DNA of 64,000 nt, taken from assembly GCF_055900595.2 (NCBI RefSeq), contig NZ_CM148325.1, one strand, 5' to 3'. Position 1 is the stretch's first letter; every line of letters begins with the position of its first letter. Below are positions 3,001 to 42,918 of this stretch, in pieces. The position numbers and the translations under genes were made by a program. A model generated the notes under the pieces. It did not search any database. It was not told the DNA's origin and worked only from the letters and a program-made list of their open reading frames with translations.

Positions 3001-3478
3001 GACAATCGGCCTGAACAACATGATCTGGCATTACGACAAAGACCTGAGTGGGTACTCACTCGGTCAGGGCGGTTACTACAGCCCGCAGGAATACCTGTCG
3101 TTTGCCATTCCGGTGATGTGGCGTGAACGGACAGAAAACTGGTCGTGGGAGCTGGGGGCGTCTGGTTCGTGGTCGCATTCGCGCACCAAAACCATGCCGC
3201 GGTATCCGCTGATGAATCTGATCCCGACTGACTGGCAGGAAGAAGCTGCGCGGCAATCCAACGATGGCGGCAGCAGTCAGGGCTTTGGCTATACGGCGCG
3301 GGCATTACTTGAGCGTCGCGTCACATCCAACTGGTTTGTCGGTACGGCAATTGATATCCAGCAAGCGAAGGATTACGCGCCCAGCCATTTCCTGCTCTAC
3401 GTACGTTATTCCGCCGCCGGATGGCAGGGTGACATGGATTTACCGCCGCAGCCGCTGATACCTTACGCCGACTGGTAA
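5..3478 (+). CDS. bcsC: Cellulose synthase operon protein BcsC (TPR repeats plus C-terminal outer-membrane beta-barrel), 1157 aa, complete
   Basis: Translation recognised as E. coli BcsC across its length; ATG at 5, TAA at 3476-3478; C-terminal aromatic-rich beta-barrel region. Recalled from memory, no search run. Confidence 0.93.
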   Translation: MRKFTLNIFTLSLGLAVMPMVEAAPTAQQQLLEQVRLGEATHREDLVQQSLYRLELIDPNNPDVVAARFRSLLRQGDIDGAQKQLDRLSQLAPSSNAYKSSRTTMLLSTPDGRQALQQARLQATTGHAEEAVASYNKLFNGAPPEGDIAVEYWSTVAKIPARRGEAINQLKRINADTPGNTGLQNNLALLLFSSDRRDEGFAVLEQMAKSNAGREGASKIWYGQIKDMPVSDASVQALKKYLSIFSDGDSVAAAQSQLAEQQKQLADPAFRARAQGLAAVDSGMAGKAIPELQQAVRANPKDSEALGALGQAYSQKGDRANAVANLEKSLALDPHSSNNDKWNSLLKVNRYWLAIQQGDAALKANNPDRAERLFQQARSVDNTDSYAVLGLGDVAMARKDYSAAERYYQQTLRMDSGNTNAVRGLANIYRQQSPEKAEAFIASLSASQRRSIDDIERSLQNDRLAQQAEALENQGKWAQAAALQRQRLALDPGSVWITYRLSQDLWQAGQRSQADTLMRNLAQQKPNDPEQVYAYGLYLSGHDQDRAALAHINSLPRTQWNSNIQELVNRLQSDQVLETANRLRENGKEAEAEAMLRQQPPSSRIDLTLADWAQQRRDYTAARTAYQNVLTREPTNADAILGLTEVDIAAGDKAAARSQLAKLPATDNASLNTQRRVALAQAQLGDTAAAQKTFNKLIPQAKSQPPSMESAMVLRDGAKFEAQAGDPTQALETYKDAMVASGVTTTRPQDNDTFTRLTRNDEKDDWLKRGVRSDAADLYRQQDLNVTLEHDYWGSSGTGGYSDLKAHTTMLQVDAPYSDGRMFFRSDFVNMNVGSFSTNADGKWDDNWGTCTLQDCSGNRSQSDSGASVAVGWRNDVWSWDIGTTPMGFNVVDVVGGISYSDDMGPLGYTVNAHRRPISSSLLAFGGQKDSPSNTGKKWGGVRADGVGLSLSYDKGEANGVWASLSGDQLTGKNVEDNWRVRWMTGYYYKVINQNNRRVTIGLNNMIWHYDKDLSGYSLGQGGYYSPQEYLSFAIPVMWRERTENWSWELGASGSWSHSRTKTMPRYPLMNLIPTDWQEEAARQSNDGGSSQGFGYTARALLERRVTSNWFVGTAIDIQQAKDYAPSHFLLYVRYSAAGWQGDMDLPPQPLIPYADW

Positions 3479-3559
3479 GTTTTCAGATAGCGCCTCTCTT
3501 AATGCCGCTGCGATCGGGTATACTCGGGCGGCAATCTGGGATTTCCGGGGGGAGACAAT

Positions 3560-5548
3560 TTGCGCGTAAGTCGCTCGTTAACAATCAAGCAGATGGCAAT
3601 GGTGGCAGCCGTTGTCCTGGTGTTCGTTTTTATTTTTTGCACCGTTTTGCTGTTCCATCTGGTCCAGCAGAATCGCTATAACACGGCTACGCAACTGGAA
3701 AGCATTGCTCGCTCTGTCCGCGAACCCTTATCTTCTGCCATTTTGAAAGGCGATATTCCCGAAGCGGAAGCTATTCTTGCCAGCATTAAACCGGCAGGCG
3801 TGGTCAGCCGTGCCGATGTGGTGCTGCCTAACCAGTTCCAGGCGCTGCGTAAAAGTTTTATTCCAGAGCGTCCGGTGCCGGTAATGGTTACTCGCATGTT
3901 TGAGCTACCGGTGCAAATCTCGCTGGGCGTTTACTCGCTGGAACGTCCGGCAAACCCGCAGCCAATTGCCTATCTGGTGCTACAGGCGGATTCCTTCCGC
4001 ATGTATAAGTTCGTGATGAGCACCCTCTCGACGTTAGTGACCATTTACTTACTTTTGTCGTTAATATTGACGGTGGCGATTAGCTGGTGCATTAACCGCC
4101 TGATTTTGCATCCGTTACGCAATATTGCTCGTGAACTTAACGCCATCCCAGCCCAGGAGCTTGTTGGTCACCAACTGGCATTACCACGTCTGCATCAGGA
4201 CGATGAAATCGGTATGCTGGTGCGCAGTTACAACCTCAACCAGCAATTGCTGCAGCGCCATTATGAAGAACAGAACGAAAATGCGATGCGCTTCCCGGTG
4301 TCGGATTTGCCGAACAAAGCCTTGCTGATGGAGATGCTGGAGCAGGTTGTCGCGCGTAAACAAACCACCGCGCTGATGATTATCACCTGTGAAACCCTGC
4401 GTGATACTGCGGGCGTGCTGAAAGAGGCGCAACGAGAAATTCTGCTGCTGACGCTGGTGGAAAAACTCAAATCGGTACTGTCGCCACGTATGATCCTCGC
4501 GCAGATTAGTGGTTATGACTTTGCTGTCATTGCCAACGGTGTACAGGAGCCGTGGCATGCTATTACTTTAGGTCAGCAAGTGCTCACTATCATGAGCGAG
4601 CGCCTGCCGATTGAACGTATTCAACTCCGTCCGCACTGTAGCATTGGCGTGGCGATGTTCTACGGCGATCTCACCGCCGAACAGCTTTACAGTCGCGCTA
4701 TTTCTGCGGCATTTACCGCTCGCCATAAAGGTAAGAATCAGATTCAGTTCTTTGATCCGCAGCAGATGGAAGCCGCCCAACAGCGGTTGACGGAAGAGAG
4801 CGATATCCTTAATGCACTGGAAAATCATCAGTTTGCGATTTGGTTACAGCCACAGGTCGAGATGACCAGCGGTAAACTGGTCAGTGCGGAAGTGTTACTG
4901 CGTATCCAGCAACCGGATGGCAGTTGGGATCTGCCGGATGGCTTAATCGATCGCATTGAGTGCTGTGGGCTGATGGTTACCGTCGGTCACTGGGTGCTGG
5001 AAGAGTCCTGTCGACTGCTGGCTGCCTGGCAAGAGCGCGGCATTATGTTGCCCTTGTCGGTAAACCTCTCAGCGCTGCAACTGATGCACCCGAATATGGT
5101 GGCGGATATGCTGGAGCTGTTAACCCGCTATCGCATTCAGCCGGGAACGCTGATTCTGGAAGTGACAGAAAGCCGACGTATTGACGACCCTCATGCAGCG
5201 GTGGCAATCCTCCGTCCGTTGCGTAATGCCGGCGTTCGGGTGGCGCTGGATGATTTCGGCATGGGCTACGCAGGGCTGCGTCAGCTGCAGCATATGAAAT
5301 CGTTGCCAATCGACGTGTTAAAAATCGACAAAATGTTTGTTGAAGGCTTGCCGGAAGATAGCAGCATGATTGCTGCAATTATCATGTTGGCGCAAAGCCT
5401 GAACTTACAAATGATTGCCGAAGGCGTGGAGACTGAAGCACAACGCGACTGGCTGGCAAAAGCGGGCGTTGGTATTGCCCAGGGCTTCCTTTTTGCTCGC
5501 CCACTCCCTATTGAAATCTTCGAAGAGAGTTACCTGGAAGAAAAGTAG
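3560..5548 (+). CDS. pdeK: c-di-GMP phosphodiesterase PdeK (YhjK); membrane-anchored, HAMP-like linker, degenerate GGDEF and EAL domains
   Basis: Translation matches YhjK; EAL-domain motifs near the C-terminus. TTG at 3560 is preceded by a GGGGAG Shine-Dalgarno about 5 nt upstream; in-frame ATGs at 3593 and 3599 are alternatives, so the start is uncertain. Confidence 0.85.
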
Positions 5549-5694
5549 CTACCCCAAACTGATTACAAAACTTTAAAAAGTGCTGGTTTGTGCGAGCCAG
5601 CTCAAACTTTTTAACCTTTTTGTTTCAATTATGATCCAGGTACATTTCTGTGATGTTGTCTGGGTGTTATTTTAAGGCCGCAGGTACCCCATAA

Positions 5695-7017
<1,323 letters not shown>

Positions 7018-7031
7018 TCTCACCACTTATG

Positions 7032-7064
7032 CCCGCACTCCCTTCCCCGAGTGCGGGTGTTTGC
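7032..7064 (+). terminator. Rho-independent terminator candidate downstream of dctA
   Basis: GC-rich inverted repeat CCCGCACTC...GAGTGCGGG followed by TGTTTG; a second hairpin CCTGAACT...AGTTCAGG plus TTTATTT follows at about 7083-7119. Confidence 0.6.
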
Positions 7065-7236
7065 GCATAATTGACCCCTGTGCCTGAACTTACCACCTGG
7101 GTGAGTTCAGGTTTATTTCACTTCTTCCGTGACATTTTCATGTTCTTGCGGTCTAACACGAAGTGTTTTTAATGTCATTTAGACTGACCGACAACGGGCA
7201 GTTTTTTATTACCAGGATAGTTGATCAGGGGTTCAC

Positions 7237-8733
7237 ATGCAGGGCACAAAAATTCGACTTTTAGCGGGCGGTTTGCTGATGATGGCCACTGCTGGCTATG
7301 TGCAGGCAGATGCGCTCCAGCCTGATCCAGCATGGCAACAGGGGACGCTTTCCAACGGTTTACAGTGGCAAGTGCTGACCACGCCCCAGCGTCCCAGCGA
7401 TCGTGTTGAAATTCGCCTGCTGGTTAATACCGGTTCGCTCGCCGAAAGTACACAACAGAGCGGTTACAGCCACGCCATCCCTCGTATTGCGTTAACGCAA
7501 AGCGGTGGCCTTGACGCAGCACAGGCGCGTTCATTGTGGCAGCAGGGGATCGACCCTAAACGCCCGATGCCGCCGGTAATTGTCTCTTATGACACCACGC
7601 TGTTTAATCTGAGTTTGCCCAATAACCGTAACGACTTGCTGAAAGAAGCGCTCTCTTATCTGGCAAATGCCACTGGCAAACTGACTATCACGCCAGAAAC
7701 CATCAACCACGCGTTGCAAAGTCAGGACATGGTGGCAACCTGGCCTGCCGATACTAAAGAGGGCTGGTGGCGCTATCGTCTGAAAGGATCAACCTTGTTA
7801 GGTCACGATCCTGCCGATCCGCTGAAACAACCCGTTGAAGCGGAAAAGATTAAAGATTTCTATCAGAAATGGTACACCCCGGATGCAATGACGCTGCTGG
7901 TGGTGGGAAACGTGGATGCGCGCTCGGTTGTCGACCAAATCAACAAAACGTTTGGCGAACTGAAAGGCAAACGTGAAACACCGGCCCCGGTGCCGACGCT
8001 TTCTCCGCTGCGTCCTGAAGCGGTGAGTATTATGACCGATGCGGTACGTCAGGACCGGTTATCTATCATGTGGGATACGCCGTGGCAGCCAATTCGTGAA
8101 TCAGCCGCACTGCTGCGCTACTGGCGTGCGGACCTGGCCCGTGAGGCGCTGTTCTGGCACGTTCAGCAAGCGTTAAGCACCAGTAACAGCAAAGACATCG
8201 GTCTTGGATTTGACTGCCGTGTGCTGTATCTGCGTGCGCAGTGTGCCATCAACATCGAGTCACCAAACGACAAGCTGAACAGCAACCTTAATTTGGTAGC
8301 GCGTGAGCTGGCAAAGGTTCGCGATAAAGGTCTGCCGGAAGAAGAGTTCAATGCGTTAGTGGCGCAAAAGAAACTGGAGCTGCAGAAACTGTTTGCCGCC
8401 TATGCGCGAGCTGATACCGATATTTTGATGGGGCAGCGGATGCGTTCGTTGCAAAATCAGGTCGTTGATATCGCGCCGGAGCAATATCAGAAACTGCGGC
8501 AGGATTTCCTTAATAGTCTGACGGTAGAGATGTTAAATCAGGATCTGCGCCAGCAGTTGTCGAACGATATGGCGTTAATTCTTCTGCAGCCGAAAGGCGA
8601 GCCAGAATTTAACATGAAAGCGTTGCAGGCGGCCTGGGATCAAATCATGGCCCCATCTACTACTGCTGCCACAACCTCTGTTGCCACGGATGACGTACAT
8701 CCTGAAGTGACGGATATTCCACCCGCACAGTAA
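7237..8733 (+). CDS. yhjJ: Putative periplasmic zinc-dependent peptidase YhjJ (M16 family), 498 aa
   Basis: Translation recognised as YhjJ; N-terminal signal-peptide-like segment. Confidence 0.9.
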   Translation: MQGTKIRLLAGGLLMMATAGYVQADALQPDPAWQQGTLSNGLQWQVLTTPQRPSDRVEIRLLVNTGSLAESTQQSGYSHAIPRIALTQSGGLDAAQARSLWQQGIDPKRPMPPVIVSYDTTLFNLSLPNNRNDLLKEALSYLANATGKLTITPETINHALQSQDMVATWPADTKEGWWRYRLKGSTLLGHDPADPLKQPVEAEKIKDFYQKWYTPDAMTLLVVGNVDARSVVDQINKTFGELKGKRETPAPVPTLSPLRPEAVSIMTDAVRQDRLSIMWDTPWQPIRESAALLRYWRADLAREALFWHVQQALSTSNSKDIGLGFDCRVLYLRAQCAINIESPNDKLNSNLNLVARELAKVRDKGLPEEEFNALVAQKKLELQKLFAAYARADTDILMGQRMRSLQNQVVDIAPEQYQKLRQDFLNSLTVEMLNQDLRQQLSNDMALILLQPKGEPEFNMKALQAAWDQIMAPSTTAATTSVATDDVHPEVTDIPPAQ

Positions 8734-8828
8734 TGCCTGATGGTGATGAGTTAGCACAACCATCAGGTATTTATGGATGAGCTGGATAGAGGGGTAACAC
8801 TTTATCCAGCCTTTTGCATATGCTGCTT

Positions 8829-9758
8829 TTACGCCGGCATCGCCTCACGCGGGATAATCGCGCCGCGATACTGAATAACGGTACTTGCGGTCAGGTGCCC
8901 GCGTTTCGCCGCATTTTCCGCACTGCCGCCCGTCAAACGTACCGCCAGATAACCGGCACTGAAAGAGTCGCCAGCTGCGGTGGTATCGATCACTTTTTCT
9001 TTCGGCAGTTTCACCGCCGGAACATCCACTAACCCTTCGCCAGCAATGGACACCAGGCAAGAATCCGCCCCGCGTTTCACCACCACTTCTTTCACGCCCG
9101 CGTTATGGGTGCGCGCAATGACGTCTTCCACCGGCTGTTGACCCCACAGCGCGTCTTCATCGTCCAGCGTCAGGAAGGCGATATCCGTGCATTCCAGCAT
9201 TTGCTGGTACACCTGCTGTGTCTCTTCTTTGCTGGCCCACAGGCGCGGACGATAGTTATTGTCGAAAATTACTTTTCCGCCGTTGGCGCGGCATTCGCGC
9301 AGCAGGGAAAGCAGCTTTTCGCGGCTGGTCGGGCTTAAGATCGCCAGGCTAATCCCGCTCAGGTAGAGATAATCGAAACTCGCCAGCTCTTCGCAAATCG
9401 CCGCGGATTGCTCACTCTCCAGCCAGAATTTGGCGGCGGCTTCGTTACGCCAGTAGTAGAACGTACGTTCGCCGGTGCTGTCGGTTTCAATGTAGTAAAG
9501 GCCCGGCAGACGGTTTTCCATCCGTTGGGTCAGGGAAGTATCAACGTTCTCGCCGTGCCAGGCGTCCAGCATCTGCTGGCTAAAACTGTCCGTTCCCAGC
9601 GCCGTTACGTAATGAACGGTTAATGCCGCAGGATCGACCTGACGGGCGATATAGACGGAAGTGTTCAGGGTATCGCCGCCGAAACCGCGCTTAACGTCCG
9701 CGCCTTTCTCGGAAAGCTCAATCATGCATTCGCCAATCACGGCAATCTTTTTGGACAT
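8829..9758 (-). CDS. kdgK: 2-dehydro-3-deoxygluconokinase KdgK, 309 aa
   Basis: Translation from MSKKIAVIGECMIELSEKGADVKRGFGGDTLNT recognised as KdgK (PfkB sugar kinase family). The six-frame ORF runs 116 codons further upstream; start trimmed to the conserved Met using the ORF-track frame. Confidence 0.9.
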   Translation of the reverse strand: MSKKIAVIGECMIELSEKGADVKRGFGGDTLNTSVYIARQVDPAALTVHYVTALGTDSFSQQMLDAWHGENVDTSLTQRMENRLPGLYYIETDSTGERTFYYWRNEAAAKFWLESEQSAAICEELASFDYLYLSGISLAILSPTSREKLLSLLRECRANGGKVIFDNNYRPRLWASKEETQQVYQQMLECTDIAFLTLDDEDALWGQQPVEDVIARTHNAGVKEVVVKRGADSCLVSIAGEGLVDVPAVKLPKEKVIDTTAAGDSFSAGYLAVRLTGGSAENAAKRGHLTASTVIQYRGAIIPREAMPA

Positions 9759-12888: not shown

Positions 12889-12896
12889 TGGAAACT

Positions 12897-12993
12897 GCCG
12901 GATGCGGCGTGAACGCCTTATCCGGCCTACAAATCCTTGCGAATTCAATATATTTTATGGAAATTCAGGCCTGATAAGCGTAGCGCATCAGGC
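12897..12993. repeat. REP (repetitive extragenic palindromic) elements, two units
   Basis: GCCGGATGCGGCGTGAACGCCTTATCCGGCCTAC and AGGCCTGATAAGCGTAGCGCATCAGGC, the canonical E. coli REP sequences, between convergent yhjG and yhjE. Confidence 0.8.
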
Positions 12994-22989: not shown

Positions 22990-23299
22990 TTACTTATTAA
23001 TGCAATAATATATTGGCTGTTTATTCATCGTGTTGATAAGATATATGTTATATGAATGTTATTAAGGGTGGCGAGACCGTTTAATATCACAATAAGGGAT
23101 TATTTGCTTACTAATAATTTCCCTGCGTTTTTAACGCCTTTTTTTGTATTATAAATCCAGTTATCCAGCCCGACTATCATCACACATCATCATCCTGTTT
23201 TCCCGCTTCGTTTAAATTTATTTATCAATCAATTTGACTTAAGAGGGCGGCGTGCTACATTAATAAACAGTAATATGTTTATGTAATATTAAGCCGACT

Positions 23300-24124
23300 A
23301 TGCAATCACTACATGGTAATTGTCTAATTGCGTACGCAAGACATAAATATATTCTCACCATGGTTAATGGTGAATATCGCTATTTTAATGGCGGTGAACT
23401 GGTTTTTGCGGATGCAAGTCAAATTCAAGTGGATAAGTGTGTCGAGAATTTTGTATTAGTTTCAAGGGACACGCTTTCATTATTTCTCCCGATGCTCAAG
23501 GAGGAGGCATTAAATCTTCATGCACATAAAAAAGTTCCTTCGTTACTCGTTCATCACTGTACCAGAGATATTCCTGTTTTTCAGGAGGTTGCGCAACTAT
23601 CGCAGAATAAGAATCTGCGCTATGCAGAAATGCTCCGTAAAAGAGCATTAATCTTTGCGTTGTTATCTGTTTTCCTGGAGGACGAGCAGTTTATACCGCT
23701 GCTTCTGAACGTTTTGCAACCGAACATGCGAACACGAGTTTGTACGGTCATCAATAATAATATCGCCCATGAGTGGACATTAGCCCAAATCGCCAGCGAG
23801 CTGTTGATGAGTTCAAGCCTGTTAAAGAAAAAATTGCGCGAAGAAGGTACGTCATATTCACAGTTGCTTACTGAGTGTAGAATGCAACGTGCTTTGCAAC
23901 TTATTGTTATACATGGTTTTTCAATTAAGCGAGTTGCAGTGTCCTGTGGTTATCACAGCGTGTCGTATTTCATTTACGTTTTTCGAAATTATTATGGGAT
24001 GACGCCCACAGAGTATCAGGAGCGATCGGCACAAGGATTGCCGAACCGTGACTCGGCGGCAAGTATTGTTGCGCAAGGGAATTTTTACGGTACTAACTAT
24101 TCTGCGGAAGAAATAAGATTATAG
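23300..24124 (+). CDS. gadX: AraC-family acid-resistance regulator GadX, 274 aa
   Basis: Translation recognised as GadX. Confidence 0.95.
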   Translation: MQSLHGNCLIAYARHKYILTMVNGEYRYFNGGELVFADASQIQVDKCVENFVLVSRDTLSLFLPMLKEEALNLHAHKKVPSLLVHHCTRDIPVFQEVAQLSQNKNLRYAEMLRKRALIFALLSVFLEDEQFIPLLLNVLQPNMRTRVCTVINNNIAHEWTLAQIASELLMSSSLLKKKLREEGTSYSQLLTECRMQRALQLIVIHGFSIKRVAVSCGYHSVSYFIYVFRNYYGMTPTEYQERSAQGLPNRDSAASIVAQGNFYGTNYSAEEIRL

Positions 24125-24139
24125 TTTTTACCCAGACAT

Positions 24140-24245
24140 AAAAAAAACCCGGCATAGGGGACCGGGAAGAGGATAGTCTGCCGTCTCCAGACTAATAAAC
24201 CGTTATAACACTCCCTGTTGGCACGGGAAACTTTGTGCTCTCAGT
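24140..24245 (-). ncRNA. gadY: GadY small RNA (antisense to the gadX 3' end, Hfq-dependent)
   Basis: Minus-strand sequence ACTGAGAGCACAAAGTTTCCCGTGCCAACAGGGAGTGTTATAACGGTTTATTAGTCTGGAGACGGCAGACTATCCTCTTCCCGGTCCCCTATGCCGGGTTTTTTTT matches GadY as recalled, with a terminal hairpin and U-tract; ends approximate. Confidence 0.8.
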
Positions 24246-24491
24246 AAGTTAAATATAACTTTTACTGGAGATAAGATCAGCCATTTTTTTATAAACATAA
24301 GCTATGCGCTGTGTGAAAATATATTCTTCTTGCATTTTCTTATTATCAATTAACTGTTATGTCAAACTACTTTTTGGATAACTTTTGGTCCTACCAAATA
24401 TGGCAGTTTATGCACGAAGAAGCGGTCTGGCATCATTTCATTAGTATACTGAAATTGAAATAATCGCAGTAATGAAATATAAGGGATAGTC

Positions 24492-25220
24492 ATGACTCAT
24501 GTCTGCTCGGTGATCCTCGTTCGTCGTTCATTGGATATTCATCATGAACAGCAAAAAATATCGTTGCACAACGAAAGTATTCTACTGCTGGATAAAAATT
24601 TGGCAGACGATTTTGCGTTTTGTTCACCGGATACACGACGACTGGATATCGATGAGCTGACAGTTTGCCATTACTTACAAAATATTCGTCAGTTACCGCG
24701 CAATTTAGGGTTACATAGCAAAGACCGTTTGTTAATTAACCAGTCCCCCCCCATGCCTCTGGTGACGGCGATTTTTGATAGTTTCAATGAATCCGGGGTA
24801 AATTCGCCGATAATGAGCAAGATGCTTTACCTTTCCTGTTTATCAATGTTTTCTCATAAGAAAGAACTTATCCCCTTACTTTTCAATAGTATCAGTACTG
24901 TTTCAGGAAAAGTTGAACGCCTTATTAGCTTTGATATCGCTAAACGTTGGTATCTACGCGATATCGCGGAAAGAATGTATACCAGCGAGAGTCTCATCAA
25001 AAAAAAGTTGCAGGATGAAAATACCTGTTTCAGTAAAATATTACTCGCCTCCAGGATGTCGATGGCCAGACGATTACTCGAGTTACGTCAAATTCCTCTA
25101 CATACTATTGCAGAAAAATGTGGGTATAGCAGTACGTCGTACTTTATAAACACATTTCGACAATATTATGGTGTAACGCCACATCAGTTTGCGCAACATT
25201 CGCCAGGTACCTTTTCCTGA
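24492..25220 (+). CDS. gadW: AraC-family acid-resistance regulator GadW, 242 aa
   Basis: Translation recognised as GadW. Confidence 0.95.
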   Translation: MTHVCSVILVRRSLDIHHEQQKISLHNESILLLDKNLADDFAFCSPDTRRLDIDELTVCHYLQNIRQLPRNLGLHSKDRLLINQSPPMPLVTAIFDSFNESGVNSPIMSKMLYLSCLSMFSHKKELIPLLFNSISTVSGKVERLISFDIAKRWYLRDIAERMYTSESLIKKKLQDENTCFSKILLASRMSMARRLLELRQIPLHTIAEKCGYSSTSYFINTFRQYYGVTPHQFAQHSPGTFS

Positions 25221-29878: not shown

Positions 29879-30216
29879 TTTAGTCCCTGAAAATTCTTGA
29901 GATATAACGGTTCTTTAAATTGCGCGCGAGGAGAGGTATGAGGGATTTACAGACCAGCGGCATAGTGGGGTTGTCAGCCAGTAAGATGGGATGCAAGCAC
30001 AGTGATCGACATGGTGAGGTCAACGACAAAAAAAATGTTGCCGTTCTGCCAACAGTTCCTGCCAGCATTCGGGCAACGAAGGGTTCTACTGGTGGATACA
30101 CATACCAGGGGAATAAAGTCGTTTTCGCCTCTCCTTTAGTCATCACCGGGGATAATGAAATCAGCATCTGCATCCCTCTTCATGCCTGCCATCATTTTCA
30201 GTTAATTATGTCCTGA

Positions 30217-30744
30217 CTAAAAATAAGATGTGATACCCAGGGTGACGATGTCGCTCATACGTCTTAGTTTCAGCTTGTACATAATGTTGAATTTCTGAAT
30301 CTTTAATGTTTGTTGCGAAATATTGAGCGTTGACGTGATATTGCTTTCGTTTTTGTTTTTCAGAATCAGCTGCATAATTTTGAACTGATTATGTGAAAAA
30401 CATAATTGTGAATTCTTATGGGGCAAGTGTTTACCATAAGTAATCTCAAGAAGATTTTTGATACTTTCTTTGCGGCTGACAAAATAAATAGGCGCTTTAG
30501 CTTTTAGTTTACTGATGTGATAAGGTGCCAAAACAATAATTCTCTCGGCGTCTAATTTCTCCAGAAATTTAATCGCTTCTTCATCAAGGATATGGTTGTG
30601 ATAGGTATCAATGATAACCTTGAAGGGTTTATTACCTACTTTTTTGATCTCTGACAGGGAATTGATTTTTATCATTTCGTGATTATCTTTCAACTGCCAA
30701 AAGCCCTGTAAAAGAAAAGAATCTTTCGTCATGAGAAAAATCAT
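30217..30744 (-). CDS. gadE: LuxR-family acid-resistance master regulator GadE, 175 aa
   Basis: Translation from MIFLMTKDSFLLQGFWQLKDNHEMIKINSLSEIKK recognised as GadE; the six-frame ORF runs 26 codons upstream. Confidence 0.92.
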   Translation of the reverse strand: MIFLMTKDSFLLQGFWQLKDNHEMIKINSLSEIKKVGNKPFKVIIDTYHNHILDEEAIKFLEKLDAERIIVLAPYHISKLKAKAPIYFVSRKESIKNLLEITYGKHLPHKNSQLCFSHNQFKIMQLILKNKNESNITSTLNISQQTLKIQKFNIMYKLKLRRMSDIVTLGITSYF

Positions 30745-33855: not shown

Positions 33856-33875
33856 TCTATATAGTTATTTATTCG

Positions 33876-33909
33876 CAGGAGTACCAGAGCGGTACTCCTG
33901 TTGGTTTTA
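33876..33909 (+). terminator. Terminator hairpin between yhiD and chuV (convergent)
   Basis: CAGGAGTACC-AGAGC-GGTACTCCTG followed by TTGGTTTT. Confidence 0.7.
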
Positions 33910-34677
33910 ATGATCGAGGACGATCAGTGGTGAATGGTTGGCAGGATCTTTAAGTACGGTAATATTCGCGCCGTAGAGCATTGTCAGCGCCTGCTGTGTC
34001 AATACGTCCTGCGGTTTACCATTTGCGATAACCTTTCCTTTTTGCATTAATACAACACGGTCTGCATAACGCGCGGCAAGATTTAGATCGTGCAATACGC
34101 AGCAAACATTGAACTGCCGTTCGTGAACTAGCTGGCGTAATAAACGAAACAAGTGCTGCTGATGGTGAATATCCAGCGCCGAAGTTGGTTCATCAAGAAA
34201 TAACCATTTCGGTGAGGGAGTTGGTTCCCAGAGTTGCACCAGCAGGCGCGCTAATTGCACGCGCTGTTGTTCACCACCGGATAATTGCCGATAGTCGCGG
34301 TTTGCTAACGCCTGACAGTCACATAACGCCATTATTTGTGCTGTTTCATTATCCTGATTACCAGTACGATGCGGATGCCGCCCCATCTGGATAACTTCTT
34401 GTACGCTGAATGGAAACGCCATGTGGCTATTTTGACGCATCACGGCCCGGTGTTTCGCCAGTTCAGTAATCGACCATTCATTTAATGGCTTATTAAACAA
34501 CCGACATTCGCCGCTATCAGGTTGAAGATAGCCGGTTAACTGGCGAAGCAGCGTAGATTTTCCCGCACCATTAGGGCCGAGAATGGCAACAATTTCCCCA
34601 CCGGGAAAAGTCAGCGAGACATTATCAGTCAGACGCCGCCCCTGAAGGCTATAAACCAGATTCTGGGCGCTGATCAT
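33907..34677 (-). CDS. chuV: Haemin ABC transporter ATP-binding protein ChuV (HmuV), 256 aa
   Basis: Walker A (GPNGAGKST), ABC signature (LSGGEQQR), Walker B ([11 protein letters not shown]); matches ChuV/ShuV. The ATG overlaps the chuU stop (ATGA); the six-frame ORF runs 51 codons upstream. Confidence 0.92.
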
Positions 34678-35666
34678 GTGATCCTCCGGTTGCGCAGAAT
34701 CAACCACATAAAATAAGGGCCACCAAGCAGGCTGGTTAATAATCCCACGGGCATTTCTGCTGGCTGTACCAGTGTGCGGGCAAGCGTGTCTGCCATCAGC
34801 AATAAACAGGCTCCGGCGAGGGCGGAGCAAGGGATTAGCCAGCGGTGATTTGCCCCGGTAGTCATACGAATCAGATGCGGGATCACCAGGCCAATAAAGC
34901 CGATAATGCCGCTTACCGATACGGCGGCACCAACGAGCAGTGAGCTCACTAACAGTAATTGCTGGCGTTTACGCTTAACGTTCACGCCGAGGTAGTGGGC
35001 TTCTTCATCACCGAGCTGCAGTAAATTCAGCGTTCCGGCGAGACAAGTTGTTGCAATAATGGCCGGTAGGATGAATGAACTGGCAACCAATAACGTCGGC
35101 CATTGCGCCTGTCCAAGATTGCCCATCATCCACAATGTGAGTTGTCGTAGCTGCTGCTCATCGCCGATATAGCTCAGGATGCCGATCGCTGCGCCGCACA
35201 GGGCATTGATGGCGATACCGGCGAGTAATAATTGCATCATGCTGCCATCGCGATGGCGCTGCGTGATGAGAAAAATGATGGTGCAGACCACTAAACTTCC
35301 GGCAATGGCAAACACCATTTGCTCATAGAGCACCAGCACCACTGGGAAGGAAAAGGGCAGCACAATAGCAACGCCAACCATTAATGCAGAACCGCTACTG
35401 ACGCCGAGTAATCCAGGGTCAGCCATTGGGTTGCGAAAAAGCCCCTGCATAATTACCCCGGCGGTTGCCAACGCTGCACCTACCAGCACCGCCAGCAAAA
35501 CCCGTGGTAGACGAATATTGAGCCAGATATCGCGGTATTCCTCATCAAAAAGGGCATCAAAACTGATCTTTAACGCTCCCTGACTGGCACCGAACAGCAC
35601 CAGAGCTAGCAATAATAGTGATAGCCCCATAAAGACCCTGGCGGAAGAGAGTGAATCCTTGAGCAC
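34674..35666 (-). CDS. chuU: Haemin ABC transporter permease ChuU (FecCD family), 330 aa
   Basis: Translation recognised as ChuU/HmuU; polytopic membrane protein. Confidence 0.93.
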
Positions 35667-35714
35667 GCAAAACTCCGTTACGACATTACGGCGCGGAGAT
35701 TCCGCGCCGGGGGA

Positions 35715-36338
35715 TCACGCCGGTTTCAGGTCCGGTTCAATCAGACTGTAGACCTGCTGGTTAAGTGCTGGCGCATTTGCCAGTTCATGGATATGTGCGG
35801 CGACATCGGCACGGTTAACAAAACCATGACACTCCTGATTTTGTATCCGTTGTGCTTTGCCCGTTGCCGCACCATCAAGCAGACCGCCAGGGCGGAGAAT
35901 GGCGTAATCAAGCTGGCTGGTTTGCAACCAGCTTTCCGCCAGCGTTTTTTCCCGTACCGCCTGACCAAACGCAGCCTTTGCCCGCTCCGATAAAAACGGC
36001 CAGCTATCGCCACATCCCAAAGAGGTCACCAGAATCATGCGACTGATGCCGGCCTTTTCGGCCTCATCAATCACTGTTCTGTGTGCCAGATAATCCTGAG
36101 CTCCGCCCATTGTTGAGATGATAAGCGCATCCGGGCCAGCTGCGCGGCAAGCAGCCGCGACTACGCTGGCATCACAGGCGTCGCCTGTAAAAACCTGTAC
36201 GCCTTGTTGCGCCAGTTTCGTGGCGGCATCAGCATGACGAATGACAGCAACGACCGGACGTTGTTCCGCCAGCGCCAGTTCAAGCGTTCTGGCACCCACA
36301 CCTTTTCCGCCTGCGCCAAAGAGTAGCCACGGCGTCAT
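35715..36338 (-). CDS. chuY: ChuY, NAD(P)-binding reductase of the haem utilisation locus (anaerobilin reductase), 207 aa
   Basis: N-terminal Rossmann-type glycine-rich motif (LLFGAGGKGVGART); matches ChuY. Confidence 0.9.
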   Translation of the reverse strand: MTPWLLFGAGGKGVGARTLELALAEQRPVVAVIRHADAATKLAQQGVQVFTGDACDASVVAAACRAAGPDALIISTMGGAQDYLAHRTVIDEAEKAGISRMILVTSLGCGDSWPFLSERAKAAFGQAVREKTLAESWLQTSQLDYAILRPGGLLDGAATGKAQRIQNQECHGFVNRADVAAHIHELANAPALNQQVYSLIEPDLKPA

Positions 36339-36832
36339 CAGGCGTGTTCCTTTAACGATGCTGCCAGAGCATGGAAGGCGCTGACTTGTTCGCTCAGGAG
36401 CTGACGATGGTCATCCCTGCCGAGGAAGATTTTCAGCATTGCGCTGCCTTCTTTGTTGAAAAAGAGAATGGATGCGGTGTCCATGCCCATAAATTTACGT
36501 TCGATCAAGGCAATATGTGTGCAGTTTTCTGCTTTGATATGCCCGGACATGCCGTGCTTTCCGCGTAGGTTGAAATAGCCGTGGCGATGGAAACCCGAAG
36601 GCAGTTCGCCGCTAAATTCGAGGATTACATCGGCAGTATGTACTAACGTGGTGACGTTGCCCCATTCGCAGACGGTATCCCAGACAGTATCGAATTTATC
36701 GCCTGACACTACGGTAGAGGAGGGTAGATTTCTCACTACTTCCAGCAGTGTGGTGTTGTATTGTTCGGCTACCACCTCCAGCGTACCGTCCGGCTCCGTT
36801 TTCAAAAATTCTTGTAACGAGACATGGCTCAT
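36338..36832 (-). CDS. chuX: ChuX, cytoplasmic haem-binding protein, 164 aa
   Basis: Translation recognised as ChuX; its stop overlaps the chuY start. Confidence 0.9.
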   Translation of the reverse strand: MSHVSLQEFLKTEPDGTLEVVAEQYNTTLLEVVRNLPSSTVVSGDKFDTVWDTVCEWGNVTTLVHTADVILEFSGELPSGFHRHGYFNLRGKHGMSGHIKAENCTHIALIERKFMGMDTASILFFNKEGSAMLKIFLGRDDHRQLLSEQVSAFHALAASLKEHA

Positions 36833-36844
36833 AAATCACTCCTG

Positions 36845-38182
36845 TTATGGTTTTTCACGCACAATCGTTGGCGCATTAAGTGCCTGAATTAGTTCATTAA
36901 GAGACTGCAAAATATTGCTTGCCCAGAAACGACCTTCATTAGTCAGCCGCAGGCAAGTTGAAGCATCGCGGCTTAAGCCTTTTTGGTGCCATTGAGCCAG
37001 TAACGGCGCGAGTTTTTCGGCATGTGGCGTAAGTTCATCCAGCGGTACACGCGCTGTTTCAACACCTGACTGCAAGGTATGACGCCATTGCGCATTACGT
37101 TCGGCGTTACGCATGATCATCATCAGCGGTTTTTTGCCTGCCGCGACGGATTCATGCCAGGTCTGAAGACTGCGTTCGTTCATCCAGGAGTAACCATTAA
37201 TCGAACCGCCGGCTCCGGAACCAAAGGCCAGACAATCGGCACCTTGTTTAATCAGCAGGTTATAGAGATTGCGTTCGCGTGTGGTACGGCCCCAGTGGCT
37301 GTTACTGATACAGCGCCAACCAGCTTCGTCCATGAAGTCACACCCTTGCAGATAAAGATCGCGTCGTTCTGCCGGAGAGGGCACGGTAGTACGCCCATTT
37401 TCCACGGCTTTGCCCAGCGGTGTATTGGGCAGGACATTGAGCGCATAGAGATCGACGCCGTCGAGACCGATATCGCGGGCAATAGTCAGATCTTCTCCCC
37501 AGGTTTGCGCATCCTGACCCGGCAGGCCAAACAGAAGGTCACAGACCACCGCAGCACGGTCGCGTTTGACCAGGCTTTCCATAAACGCAATGGCGGTTGG
37601 GCCATCCGAGGTGCGGGCCATTTTCTTACGGATTTTGCTGTTAAACGACTGAATACCAATTGAGAAGCGGTTTGCTCCTGCATCAAGGCAAGCATCGATT
37701 CGCTCAGCGTCAAAATTCAGTACCCGGCCTTCGATAGTGATTTCACAATCAGGGGCCAGTGGCAGCTTTTCTCGTAATGTGGTGATAATTCTGGCCAAAT
37801 CGTGTGCCGAAAGCGCGGAAGGCGTGCCGCCACCGAAATAGACCGCGTGGATGGGGGCAGACTGATGCAATACGCTGTCCGCTTCCATTTCTATTTCACG
37901 AATCAGGGCGTCGGTATAATGAGCACACGCATCTTCATTAAAACGGTTCTGATAAAAACCACAAAACGTGCAGTGTGTTGCACAAAAAGGAATGTGTAGA
38001 TAAACCAGTCGCTTACGTGGTGATACCGTTTGATTGAGCATCTCTTGCCAGGTCTGTGCCAGTTGCTCTTTGGCAACTGGAATGGCCCCACGAAACGGCA
38101 TCATGGCGCGCCTGTCTTTAAATGGCTGATCACCGTCTAAAGCAAAATGTGGCGTGAGATCCAGGGGGTTATTTGTGTTCAT
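36845..38182 (-). CDS. chuW: ChuW, radical SAM haem-degrading methyltransferase (HemN-like; anaerobilin synthase), 445 aa
   Basis: Radical SAM CxxxCxxC motif (CATHCTFCGF) and HemN-like architecture; matches ChuW. Confidence 0.92.
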   Translation of the reverse strand: MNTNNPLDLTPHFALDGDQPFKDRRAMMPFRGAIPVAKEQLAQTWQEMLNQTVSPRKRLVYLHIPFCATHCTFCGFYQNRFNEDACAHYTDALIREIEMEADSVLHQSAPIHAVYFGGGTPSALSAHDLARIITTLREKLPLAPDCEITIEGRVLNFDAERIDACLDAGANRFSIGIQSFNSKIRKKMARTSDGPTAIAFMESLVKRDRAAVVCDLLFGLPGQDAQTWGEDLTIARDIGLDGVDLYALNVLPNTPLGKAVENGRTTVPSPAERRDLYLQGCDFMDEAGWRCISNSHWGRTTRERNLYNLLIKQGADCLAFGSGAGGSINGYSWMNERSLQTWHESVAAGKKPLMMIMRNAERNAQWRHTLQSGVETARVPLDELTPHAEKLAPLLAQWHQKGLSRDASTCLRLTNEGRFWASNILQSLNELIQALNAPTIVREKP

Positions 38183-38201
38183 TCGTCTGATTTAAATCCA
38201 T

Positions 38202-39116
38202 TTATTGTGGCCAAAGCTGCTGGTGTAAAGACTCAACGACATCAGCAATACGCGGACCCATTCCCAGAATCAGGTTTTGATCAACGGTGATAATGCGCTG
38301 GTTTTTCCATGCGGCAGTGTGGGTAATTCCGGCAATAGAACGTAGCCGGTTAATATCGCCATCGACCATTTGTGAGGTTACGACAATCACTTCTGGATTA
38401 GCCGCAATCAGTGATTCTGCACTGTAGCTTTTGTACTGCTGGTGGGTTGCGACGTTTTCTGCTCCGGCAAGCGAAAGAATGGCGTCCGCGACGCTGCCTT
38501 TACCGGCAACCTGTGGCGCACTTCCGCCTGCGGAGAGAATAAACATGGCTTTAACCGGGGCTTTTTTGGCCGCCACGTTTTGCTGTACTCGCTCCAGGCG
38601 TTGGTTGATCTGTGTCACCAGCGCCTCGCCTTGTTCAGGAACCTGTAGCGTTTTTGCCAGTTGGCGAATGTTGGCGTACATCTGCTCAAGGGTGGCAGGC
38701 ACACGCGGCAGGGTGACGACGTTGACTTTCTGCGCTCGTAGTTGGTCGAGCACAATTTGTGGCCCGGCATCCTGCCAGGTAATTACGCTATCCGGGCGAA
38801 GTGACAAAATGCCTTCGCTGCTGAGTTGTTTCCAGTAGCCAATATGCGGCAGTTTGGCGGTTTCTGGTGGATAAGATGTCGTTTCATCGACACCAACCAC
38901 GCGTTCGCCAGCGCCCATCGCGTAGATTAGCTCCGTCAGCGATCCTCCTGCGACCACGATACGTTCGGCAGCCGTTACGCTAAAAGCCCAGCTAAGAGCC
39001 AGTACTGCCGTAAACAATTTTTTTCGTTTTACCGCGGTCTTCGCGGCAGAGGCCACGGCTGAAATACATAACGTCAGTGGGGAAAAAAGAAACGGCCTGG
39101 TGATGATCCTTGGCAT
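38202..39116 (-). CDS. chuT: ChuT, periplasmic haem-binding protein of the ABC importer, about 304 aa
   Basis: Translation recognised as ChuT/ShuT. Start set at MPRIITR because the longer six-frame ORF would place the Fur box inside the coding sequence; exact start uncertain. Confidence 0.85.
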   Translation of the reverse strand: MPRIITRPFLFSPLTLCISAVASAAKTAVKRKKLFTAVLALSWAFSVTAAERIVVAGGSLTELIYAMGAGERVVGVDETTSYPPETAKLPHIGYWKQLSSEGILSLRPDSVITWQDAGPQIVLDQLRAQKVNVVTLPRVPATLEQMYANIRQLAKTLQVPEQGEALVTQINQRLERVQQNVAAKKAPVKAMFILSAGGSAPQVAGKGSVADAILSLAGAENVATHQQYKSYSAESLIAANPEVIVVTSQMVDGDINRLRSIAGITHTAAWKNQRIITVDQNLILGMGPRIADVVESLHQQLWPQ

Positions 39117-39140
39117 AATATGAGAACTCTTATCAAATTG

Positions 39141-39161
39141 AGAATGATCATGATTATCATT
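39141..39161. promoter_or_regulatory. Fur box at the chuT promoter
   Basis: AGAATGATCATGATTATCATT closely matches the Fur consensus GATAATGATAATCATTATC, about 25 bp upstream of the chuT start. Confidence 0.7.
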
Positions 39162-39490
39162 TGAGTTATATATGAAATACAACCGTCGATTCAATACGCA
39201 AGGCGTTACAAGCGTATTTATTTTTGATTTTTATCAAGATGCTTCGTCAGCTAACGTTCTTGTTACCGACTAAATTTCAGCGCGGGAAAAAGCTGAGAAC
39301 CCAGAGATATCGCGGCTTGCAGAGCAAAGAGAAGAGAAAATTATCACTGTTAACGACAAAGTTTAGTGATGAGGTTATGGGGGAATAACCATAAAAACAA
39401 AGTGGTTTCCAGGGCGCAGGATAGGTTTCATAACCCCCTGTTTATTGTGTTAATGGCGGTTAAAAAAAGCTTGATCATAAAAAATTGATC

Positions 39491-39509
39491 GATAATAATT
39501 CTCATTATC
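39491..39509. promoter_or_regulatory. Fur box at the chuA promoter
   Basis: GATAATAATTCTCATTATC is a near-consensus Fur box about 290 bp upstream of the chuA ATG, implying a long 5' UTR. Confidence 0.7.
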
Positions 39510-39798
39510 ACGTTCGCGCTTAACAAAACACGACCATATGGATAACAAAACCATAGCATTTGCAAGGGATAACGCACAGCGCTCTTCACTCCTGATGGGG
39601 CATATCGTTTTGCCTGATAAAGAGGGCGTGCTTTTGCGTATTTGCCGAGATACCAGGCAATTTCATGGGATATAAACGCCTGTAAACTCACCCGGCGAAT
39701 ATTATCGCTCTGAATTTTAAATAAATTTATTTCTCGCAAGCCACCCCGGTATTAACCCAGGCAGCCAGCATTTTTTATTTTCCTCATGGAGAATCGCT

Positions 39799-41781
39799 AT
39801 GTCACGTCCGCAATTTACCTCGTTGCGTTTGAGTTTGTTGGCTTTGGCTGTTTCTGCCACCTTGCCAACGTTTGCTTTTGCTACTGAAACCATGACCATT
39901 ACGGCAACGGGGAATGCCCGTAGTTCCTTCGAAGCGCCTATGATGGTCAGCGTCATCGACACTTCCGCTCCTGAAAATCAAACGGCTACTTCAGCCACCG
40001 ATCTGCTGCGTCATGTTCCTGGAATTACTCTTGATGGTACCGGACGAACCAACGGTCAGGATGTAAATATGCGTGGCTATGATCATCGCGGCGTGCTGGT
40101 TCTTGTCGATGGTGTTCGCCAGGGAACGGATACCGGACACCTGAATGGTACTTTTCTCGATCCGGCGCTGATCAAGCGTGTTGAGATTGTTCGCGGACCT
40201 TCAGCATTACTGTATGGCAGTGGCGCGCTGGGTGGGGTGATCTCCTACGATACGGTCGATGCAAAAGATTTATTGCAGGAAGGACAAAGTAGTGGTTTTC
40301 GTGTCTTTGGTACTGGTGGCACGGGGGACCATAGCCTGGGATTAGGCGCGAGCGCGTTTGGGCGAACTGAAAATCTGGATGGTATTGTGGCCTGGTCCAG
40401 TCGCGATCGGGGTGATTTACGCCAGAGCAATGGTGAAACCGCGCCGAATGACGAGTCCATTAATAACATGCTGGCGAAAGGGACCTGGCAAATTGATTCA
40501 GCCCAGTCTCTGAGCGGTTTAGTGCGTTACTACAACAACGACGCGCGTGAACCAAAAAATCCGCAGACCGTTGAGGCTTCTGAAAGCAGCAACCCGATGG
40601 TTGATCGTTCAACAATTCAACGCGATGCGCAGCTTTCTTATAAACTCGCCCCGCAGGGCAACGACTGGTTAAATGCAGATGCAAAAATTTACTGGTCGGA
40701 AGTCCGTATTAATGCGCAAAACACGGGGAGTTCCGGCGAGTATCGTGAACAGATAACAAAAGGAGCCAGGCTGGAGAACCGTTCCACTCTATTTGCCGAC
40801 AGTTTCGCTTCTCACTTACTGACATATGGCGGTGAGTATTATCGTCAGGAACAACATCCGGGCGGCGCGACGACGGGCTTTCCGCAAGCAAAAATCGATT
40901 TTAGCTCTGGCTGGCTACAGGATGAGATCACCTTACGCGATCTGCCGATTACCCTGCTTGGCGGAACCCGCTATGACAGTTATCACGGTAGCAGCGACGG
41001 CTACAAAGATGTTGATGCTGACAAATGGTCATCTCGTGCGGGGATGACTATCAACCCGACCAACTGGCTGATGTTATTTGGCTCATATGCCCAGGCATTC
41101 CGCGCCCCGACGATGGGCGAAATGTATAACGATTCTAAGCACTTCTCGATTGGTAGCTTCTATACCAACTATTGGGTGCCAAACCCGAACTTACGTCCGG
41201 AAACTAACGAAACTCAGGAGTACGGTTTTGGGCTGCGTTTTGATGACCTGATGTTGTCCAATGATGCCCTGGAATTTAAAGCCAGCTACTTTGATACCAA
41301 AGCGAAGGATTACATCTCCACGACTGTCGATTTCGCGGCTGCGACAACTATGTCGTATAACGTCCCGAACGCCAAAATCTGGGGCTGGGATGTGATGACG
41401 AAATATACCACTGATCTGTTTAGCCTTGATGTGGCCTATAACCGTACCCGCGGCAAAGACACCGATACCGGGGAATATATTTCCAGTATTAACCCGGATA
41501 CCGTTACCAGCACCCTGAATATTCCGATCGCTCACAGTGGCTTCTCTGTTGGTTGGGTCGGTACGTTTGCCGATCGCTCAACACATATCAGCAGCAGTTA
41601 CAGCAAACAACCTGGCTATGGTGTGAATGATTTCTACGTCAGTTATCAAGGGCAGCAGGCGCTCAAAGGTATGACCACTACTCTGGTATTGGGCAACGCC
41701 TTCGACAAAGAGTACTGGTCGCCGCAAGGCATCCCACAGGATGGTCGTAACGGAAAAATTTTCGTGAGTTATCAATGGTAA
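39799..41781 (+). CDS. chuA: ChuA, TonB-dependent outer-membrane haem/haemoglobin receptor, 660 aa
   Basis: Translation recognised as ChuA/ShuA; signal peptide, TonB-box region, C-terminal aromatic terminus (SYQW). Confidence 0.95.
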   Translation: MSRPQFTSLRLSLLALAVSATLPTFAFATETMTITATGNARSSFEAPMMVSVIDTSAPENQTATSATDLLRHVPGITLDGTGRTNGQDVNMRGYDHRGVLVLVDGVRQGTDTGHLNGTFLDPALIKRVEIVRGPSALLYGSGALGGVISYDTVDAKDLLQEGQSSGFRVFGTGGTGDHSLGLGASAFGRTENLDGIVAWSSRDRGDLRQSNGETAPNDESINNMLAKGTWQIDSAQSLSGLVRYYNNDAREPKNPQTVEASESSNPMVDRSTIQRDAQLSYKLAPQGNDWLNADAKIYWSEVRINAQNTGSSGEYREQITKGARLENRSTLFADSFASHLLTYGGEYYRQEQHPGGATTGFPQAKIDFSSGWLQDEITLRDLPITLLGGTRYDSYHGSSDGYKDVDADKWSSRAGMTINPTNWLMLFGSYAQAFRAPTMGEMYNDSKHFSIGSFYTNYWVPNPNLRPETNETQEYGFGLRFDDLMLSNDALEFKASYFDTKAKDYISTTVDFAAATTMSYNVPNAKIWGWDVMTKYTTDLFSLDVAYNRTRGKDTDTGEYISSINPDTVTSTLNIPIAHSGFSVGWVGTFADRSTHISSSYSKQPGYGVNDFYVSYQGQQALKGMTTTLVLGNAFDKEYWSPQGIPQDGRNGKIFVSYQW

Positions 41782-41829
41782 TCATCTGCCCCGATATTTC
41801 GGGGCATTTATCTGGAAGGAAGAGAGACA

Positions 41830-42858
41830 ATGAACCACTACACACGCTGGCTTGAGTTAAAAGAACAAAATCCCGGAAAGTACGCGCGTGACATCGCAGG
41901 TTTAATGAATATTAGCGAAGCAGAACTGGCATTTGCGCGCGTCACGCACGATGCGTGGCGGATGTGCGGCGATATCCGTGACATTCTGGCGGCGCTCGAA
42001 AGTGTTGGCGAGACCAAATGTATTTGTCGTAATGAATATGCAGTCCATGAGCAAGTTGGTGCGTTCACAAACCAGCATTTAAACGGACATGCCGGATTGA
42101 TCCTCAATCCGCGCGCGCTGGATTTGCGTCTGTTTCTCAATCAATGGGCCAGTGTTTTCCACATCAAAGAAAATACGACTCGTGGCGAACGCCAGAGTAT
42201 TCAGTTCTTTGATCATCAGGGCGATGCATTACTAAAAGTTTATGCCACCGACAATACCGATATGGCGGCATGGAGTGAGCTTCTGGCACGGTTTATCACC
42301 GATGAGAATACGCCGCTTGAGTTAAAAGCCGTTGATGCGCCAGTTGTTCAAAAGCGAGCCGATGCCAGTGTGGTCGAGCAAGAGTGGCGGGCGATGACCG
42401 ACGTTCATCAGTTTTTTACGTTGCTCAAGCGCCACAACCTGACGCGCCAACAGGCGTTCAATCTGGTGGCAGATGATTTGGCCTGCAAAGTATCCAACAG
42501 TGCGTTGGCGCAAATTCTTGAATCTGCACAGCAGGATGGCAATGAAATCATGGTGTTTGTTGGCAACCGTGGCTGCGTACAGATTTTCACTGGCGTGGTA
42601 GAAAAAGTGGTGCCAATGAAAGGTTGGCTGAATATTTTTAACCCGACGTTTACTCTTCATCTATTAGAAGAGAGCATTGCTGAAACCTGGGTAACCCGTA
42701 AACCTGCTAGTGACGGTTATGTGACCAGTCTGGAATTGTTTGCCCATGATGGTACGCAGATAGCGCAACTTTATGGTCAACGTACAGAAGGCGAACAGGA
42801 GCAAGCGCAATGGCGTAAGCAAATTGCTTCGCTGATACCGGAAGGCGTTACTGCATAA
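41830..42858 (+). CDS. chuS: ChuS, haem oxygenase / haem degradation protein, 342 aa
   Basis: Translation recognised as ChuS/ShuS. Confidence 0.93.
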   Translation: MNHYTRWLELKEQNPGKYARDIAGLMNISEAELAFARVTHDAWRMCGDIRDILAALESVGETKCICRNEYAVHEQVGAFTNQHLNGHAGLILNPRALDLRLFLNQWASVFHIKENTTRGERQSIQFFDHQGDALLKVYATDNTDMAAWSELLARFITDENTPLELKAVDAPVVQKRADASVVEQEWRAMTDVHQFFTLLKRHNLTRQQAFNLVADDLACKVSNSALAQILESAQQDGNEIMVFVGNRGCVQIFTGVVEKVVPMKGWLNIFNPTFTLHLLEESIAETWVTRKPASDGYVTSLELFAHDGTQIAQLYGQRTEGEQEQAQWRKQIASLIPEGVTA

Positions 42859-42918
42859 CGTATAATTAAAGGGAGGTCTGGCTATTTATTGCTGGGCCTC
42901 TTTATATTAATCAATCGA

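Follow-up and report, generated by a model that had tools for sequence, protein, structure and literature searches.

The 64,000-nt stretch of DNA analysed here (the window; NCBI RefSeq assembly GCF_055900595.2, contig NZ_CM148325.1) carries in the gadX-gadW spacer, on the minus strand, what is almost certainly the orthologous and intact gadY gene of an E. coli acid fitness island, presumably acting according to the published model (probability of about 0.96). The gene comprises 106 nt, with its 5' end at position 24245 and its 3' end at position 24140, and it is identical without a single mismatch to the curated gadY gene (b4452) of E. coli K-12 MG1655, which is annotated as an ncRNA of 106 nt (NC_000913.3, 3664864..3664969). 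The exact K-12 string is present in one copy in the window. Moreover, a scan with 4,227 Rfam families, which was applied to a first 12 kb and then to the whole window, yielded a single match at the gadX-gadW spacer, and this match was to GadY (RF00122; 24135..24248, minus strand; 150 bits against a gathering score of 45; E = 1.6e-32). The match spans positions 1-114 of the 114-position model and all aligned bases correspond to the model consensus. The assignment is correct but ordinary: gadY at this site is already known, and the current understanding of GadY is unchanged.

A sequence-only reading of the region had claimed that a GadY-like sequence on the minus strand follows directly on the gadX stop codon and ends in a hairpin and a U-tract. 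Such a sequence is indeed present, and its extent could be refined to 24140..24245. The alignment to the K-12 gadY gene, which had been suggested as a check, revealed zero divergence, and the terminator, for which a disruption had been considered, is intact. The interval initially delimited (24125..24260) extends beyond the gadY gene by 15 nt on either side, comprising 3' flank at one end and promoter sequence with the −10 element at the other. The proposed synteny with gadX and gadW was found as well (Table 1); the RefSeq annotation that was used for the coordinates of both genes is that of a closely related genome. The gadX stop codon (24122..24124) is separated by 15 nt from the 3' end of GadY (16 nt in K-12), and 246 nt lie between the 5' end of gadY and the start codon of gadW. 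Thus arranged, gadY is convergent with gadX and divergent from gadW, and the locus is bordered by gadA upstream and by mdtF downstream on the opposite strand. Owing to its location opposite to the gadX-gadW transcript, gadY encodes an RNA with perfect complementarity to the gadX 3'UTR and the adjoining intergenic segment. The overlap with the gadX 3'UTR that had been pointed out before is therefore real, but it had been restricted to the 3' portion of GadY, and this restriction did not hold, as all 106 nt are complementary to the intergenic RNA. It had also been remarked that a view based on open reading frames would miss this RNA. The remark is justified because the PGAP/RefSeq records contain no feature under gadY: in the E. 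coli RefSeq genomes annotated by PGAP the entry under the gadY match is 'none', and the curated MG1655 record alone annotates the gene.

Table 1. Coordinates of gadY, its neighbours and further features of the window
Feature	Position	Strand	Evidence or remark
gadX	23300..24124	+	274 aa; NCBIfam NF007432 GadX equivalog, 592 bits (cutoff 500); same coordinates in RefSeq
gadY	24140..24245	−	106/106 nt identical to K-12 b4452; RF00122, 150 bits
GadY target region (gadX 3'UTR / gadX-gadW intergenic RNA)	24140..24245	+	opposite strand, perfectly complementary
gadY Rho-independent terminator	24140..24166	−	stem-loop 24148..24166 and U8 24140..24147; terminator scan
GadY central hairpin	24174..24194	−	7-bp stem, 7-nt loop; invariant across the Escherichia compared
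GadY 5' domain, Rfam nested helices 1-3	24199..24245	−	MFE fold and Rfam consensus structure
gadY −10 hexamer TATATT (predicted)	24252..24257	−	positions −12..−7; same as in K-12; invariant across species
AppY-binding motif ATGGCTGA (predicted)	24277..24284	−	positions −39..−32; overlaps the weak −35; consensus ATGSCWGM
gadW	24492..25220	+	242 aa; ORF; RefSeq gadW at matching coordinates; AraC-family matches
ES205 sRNA	30028..30099	−	Rfam match, 105 bits (gathering score 86)
Heme ABC ATPase	33907..34830	−	chu locus
ChuW/HutW	36845..38182	−	chu locus
shuA/chuA 5'UTR thermoregulator	39770..39801	+	Rfam match
ChuA-type TonB heme receptor	39799..41781	+	chu locus
AgrB (two tandem copies)	50045..50127 and 50278..50362	−	Rfam matches, ~90 bits each
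ES036 (CssrF)	59141..59181	−	Rfam match, 37.9 bits (gathering score 37.6), barely reached

The 3' end of gadY is formed by a Rho-independent terminator with the sequence CCCGGT-CCCCTAT-GCCGGG at 24166..24148, which is followed by U8 at 24147..24140. The stem consists of 6 bp (5 GC) and encloses a loop of 7 nt. In a terminator scan of the region 23900..24600 this was the sole terminator-like site, it was called in the minus direction only, and no plus-strand terminator was called between gadX and gadW. On the plus strand, A8 stands before the hairpin and GAAGAGGA, without a T-run, after it. Thus, transcription of gadX encounters no sequence-encoded stop before gadW, in agreement with the co-transcript of gadX and gadW that has been published. 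These observations also bear on the idea that the segment is a mere terminator region of gadX, either a bidirectional terminator or a repeat element, that gave rise to the Rfam match. A GC-rich hairpin is indeed located 24–42 nt past the gadX stop codon; however, the match extends far beyond this hairpin, as it includes the full 114-position model and the entire K-12 gadY sequence. A dispersed repeat can be discounted as well, as the window has one copy of the gadY sequence and genomes typically have a single copy. Given the missing T-run on the plus strand and the full-length GadY match, a plain gadX terminator could be excluded as an explanation, and its probability is negligible.

The predicted promoter region of gadY (24246..24290, ~45 bp) combines the AppY motif ATGGCTGA with a −35 element that is weak and a −10 element that is good; the −10 element and the AppY motif were placed by their position relative to the 5' end of gadY. 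Within 60 nt upstream of gadY the sole difference to K-12 is found at position −25, which is a C in the window and a T in K-12; the C is the majority base across the Escherichia species. The gadY promoter was missed by a generic scan for consensus sigma-70 promoters. This is to be expected for an activator- or RpoS-dependent promoter with a weak −35 element, and the miss is no positive evidence. The −10 element and the AppY motif are present and conserved, and the region probably functions as the gadY promoter, which is reported to depend on RpoS, GadX/GadW and AppY. It has also been reported that AppY binds to the gadY promoter and that the AppY motif overlaps the −35 element of gadY (PMC10057817).

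It is conceivable that the conserved block is maintained for a function of the plus strand only, for instance as a structured gadX 3'UTR or as an element of the gadX-gadW intergenic RNA that serves in processing or stability, and that the minus strand gives rise to an incidental RNA or, in this lineage, to none. The two strands have their hairpins in common, conservation alone cannot tell which strand is selected, and the RNA that is cleaved is the plus-strand RNA (PMC3919570). However, a U8 tract after the stem is found on the minus strand only, and conservation continues for ~45–55 nt upstream of the GadY 5' end, where it takes in the −10 element and the AppY motif, both of them meaningless for a plus-strand RNA. 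In K-12, moreover, an sRNA with the identical sequence has been detected by experiment. A function restricted to the plus strand is thus very unlikely, since the terminator and the conserved promoter elements are meaningful only for an RNA transcribed from the minus strand.

The minus strand also contains short ATG-initiated ORFs, and the conserved sequence might thus encode a small protein of either 31 aa (24203..24298) or 20 aa (24093..24155). The longer ORF has its start codon at position 24298 and thus begins 53 nt before the 5' end of GadY; it is therefore not contained in the transcript. Moreover, its frame is shifted by indels, namely by an extra A near GadY position 11 in E. coli E69 and by the loss of the C at position 19 in E. 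albertii, whereas the RNAs that bear these indels remain significant matches to the Rfam model. The shorter ORF covers the divergent 3' flank of gadY. A small protein was therefore excluded on the basis of the ORF start upstream of the transcription start and the frameshifts in the orthologues, and we attach hardly any probability to it. The intact gadY gene remains the preferred reading of the locus.

The conservation of gadY stands out from that of its surroundings. At least 99% identity to gadY was observed in 5,412 of the 5,426 complete E. coli genomes, where the gene is always chromosomal and typically present in a single copy. By contrast, the 1.9-kb gadX–gadW block of the window is at least 99% identical in only 12 of 5,418 E. 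coli genomes, and 2,777 genomes fall between 90 and 95% identity. The rarity of the window allele and the large number of genomes in this range indicate that gadX and gadW are unusually polymorphic for E. coli core genes. A comparison of the window with K-12 gave identities of 94.9% for gadX, 95.9% for gadW and 92.3% for the gadY–gadW spacer, while gadY is 100% identical. The 15 nt that separate the gadX stop codon from gadY are 81% identical to K-12 and show two substitutions and a 1-nt deletion. At the substitution rate of the flanks, the probability of finding no difference at all in 106 positions is 0.0036. The longest run of identity between the window and K-12 is 137 nt in length (24133..24269) and corresponds to gadY and its core promoter. 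Strain 2013C-4282 is 100% identical to the window over 24100..24300 and ~98.5% identical over the 25 kb shared by both.

A similar picture emerged from the genus Escherichia. The search relied on an exact 22-mer and one genome per species and does not establish that gadY is absent from E. marmotae, E. ruysiae and E. fergusonii; within this scope, matches were obtained in Escherichia only, namely in E. coli lineages, E. albertii, E. whittamii and two unnamed species. All of these GadY copies gave significant Rfam scores (117–150 bits). The gene is 92–97% identical in the other Escherichia species, as compared to ~75% for the flanks, and every other segment of the gadX–gadW region varies more between the species. 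In an alignment of nine gadX–gadW sequences, the mean pairwise difference was 0.02–0.08 at 24150..24299 and 0.10–0.42 elsewhere. Identity drops sharply right after the U-tract, while at the other end the conserved block reaches ~45–55 nt beyond the GadY 5' end and includes the −10 element and the AppY motif. The longest run that is invariant throughout the genus (24173..24198) includes the central hairpin, and invariance is focused in the 3' ~59 nt of GadY, which consist of an AU-rich linker, the central hairpin and the terminator. As judged from these alignments, the conserved core of GadY is this 3' part of ~59 nt. Escherichia sp. MOD1-EC7003 carries a 622-bp deletion (at 1532..1546, which corresponds to 23257..23878 in the window) that removed the promoter-proximal region of gadX and ~580 nt of its 5' end. 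No gadX-sized ORF is left in this strain; gadY is identical to that of the window at 114 of 114 positions, and gadW is intact.

Folding of the RNA gave a more differentiated result. The MFE fold of GadY reproduces the three-domain structure of the Rfam model. However, the folding energy of the whole RNA is no better than that of shuffled sequence (z = −0.44), and the 5' domain is likewise no more stable than its shuffled counterparts (z = +0.45). Only the two 3' hairpins fold with individual significance, the central hairpin with z = −2.76 and the terminator hairpin with z = −2.63; all six pairs of the latter (6/6) are invariant in the Escherichia sequences compared. The covariation analysis was based on eight sequences, six of them distinct, from five Escherichia species or lineages. 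No compensatory pair was detected among the six distinct sequences, and 97% of the cells pair. The test is uninformative for the central and the terminator helices because these helices never vary. Variation occurs in the 5' domain. Here, the exchanges G31U and U47C of E. whittamii and Escherichia sp. E1V33 each break a pair. In E. albertii, A7G turns an A-U into a G-U pair, one C (position 19) is deleted from the 5' arm of the inner helix, and the 3' arm opposite to it carries G31A. As the variants break pairs and are not compensated, the 5' domain of the Rfam model is left without comparative support, and the covariation result appears mildly negative for this part of GadY.

In K-12, GadY occurs in forms of 105, 90 and 59 nt and acts as a positive regulator of gadX (PMC4574537). 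It has been reported that GadY is induced at the entry into stationary phase via RpoS (PMC12266141) and that pairing of GadY with the gadX 3'UTR stabilises the gadX mRNA (PMC10057817). Moreover, the gadX-gadW mRNA is cleaved in a GadY-dependent manner and the products accumulate (PMC3919570; PMC12266141). The cleavage within the region paired with GadY involves RNase III and persists in an rnc mutant, which implies another nuclease (PMC3919570). GadY also binds Hfq and probably acts in trans, too (PMC12266141; PMC11300174). The expression of the ~105-, 90- and 59-nt forms in stationary phase and the binding of Hfq are documented for K-12 only (PMC4574537; PMC11300174).

The sequence of the window is fully compatible with this mechanism, which is also the one that the sequence-only reading had cited for the processing and stabilisation of gadX mRNA. 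From the literature we infer that expression, the shorter forms, Hfq binding and the cleavage and stabilisation of the target apply to the strain of the window as well. In this strain, transcription from an RpoS- and activator-dependent promoter in 24246..24290 would yield an RNA of ~105 nt and would end at the Rho-independent terminator of gadY, which leaves 15 nt to the gadX stop codon. Provided that the 3' end at the terminator is common to all forms, the 5' ends of the 90-nt and the 59-nt RNAs would presumably be located at ~24229 and ~24198, respectively. GadY would then pair perfectly with the gadX 3'UTR and the intergenic segment of the gadX-gadW transcript, and the duplex would direct RNase III and at least one further nuclease to endonucleolytic cleavage of the paired segment.

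The system most closely related to the one described here is the GadY locus of K-12 (b4452; RF00122), with which the window shares all 106 nt, the antisense position relative to gadX and gadW, the terminator, the −10 element and the AppY motif. Only the flanks differ, i.e. the SNP at −25 in the promoter spacer, the altered 15-nt gap and the neighbouring gadX, gadW and spacer alleles, which are 4–8% divergent and of which those in the window are rare. Like GadY, the lambda OOP/cII-O, OrzO/zorO and Sok/hok systems rely on cis-encoded antisense RNAs that direct RNase III-dependent processing of an mRNA, and the resemblance includes cleavage within the duplex, RNase III and a residual cleavage independent of RNase III (PMC3919570). 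In contrast to repressive antitoxin RNAs, the cleavage directed by GadY raises the levels of the mRNA halves according to the published model and is thus a positive regulation. Unlike typical repressive antitoxin RNAs, GadY also binds Hfq and has reported trans targets (PMC12266141; PMC11300174). The sRNA SraG is similar in that its gene, in the rpsO-pnp intergenic region, lies between two coding regions of the same orientation and is transcribed against their direction (PMC5029454). However, SraG belongs to another locus and has another target, and the resemblance is only architectural.

Several other features of the window were observed (Table 1). Within the acid fitness island, yhiD and dctR are separated by a chu heme-uptake locus of ~9 kb (33859..42918), which is absent from the same site in the related strain 2013C-4282. 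That strain contains between yhjJ and kdgK (3182..8836) ~5.6 kb of genes for hypothetical proteins, including a DUF3142 protein, where the yhjJ–kdgK interval of the window (8735..8835) is just ~100 nt in length. Downstream of gadE (30217..30744, minus strand), the ES205 match occupies the 3' region at a distance of 118–189 nt from the stop codon and probably corresponds to GadF, an sRNA derived from the gadE 3'UTR. PGAP has placed a hypothetical 92-aa coding sequence opposite to this match (29938..30216, plus strand). In the arsR–gor spacer, the two AgrB matches adjoin dinQ, a gene for a type I toxin; this is the known agrA/agrB–dinQ arrangement. The ES036 match is part of a ~99-nt element (59120..59218), of which an inverted copy with ~85–87% identity exists at 12896..12993. 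Owing to this copy, the match is probably not a specific sRNA gene but part of a dispersed intergenic repeat.

Returning to the near-invariance of gadY, the complementarity of a cis-encoded antisense RNA to its target survives any mutation, and pairing with the gadX-gadW transcript alone can therefore not explain it. The invariance might instead arise from sequence constraints that are independent of gadX, such as Hfq binding, seeds for trans targets or nuclease recognition; this is a tentative proposal, which we rate at somewhat below even odds. The perfect gadY gene that MOD1-EC7003 has retained despite the gadX deletion fits a gadX-independent role. If true, such a constraint would be a corroboration, since a role of GadY in trans has already been proposed in the literature. 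Finally, the presence of an intact gadY gene beside unusually divergent gadX and gadW alleles suggests that the post-transcriptional layer of this regulation is conserved even where the protein regulators vary.
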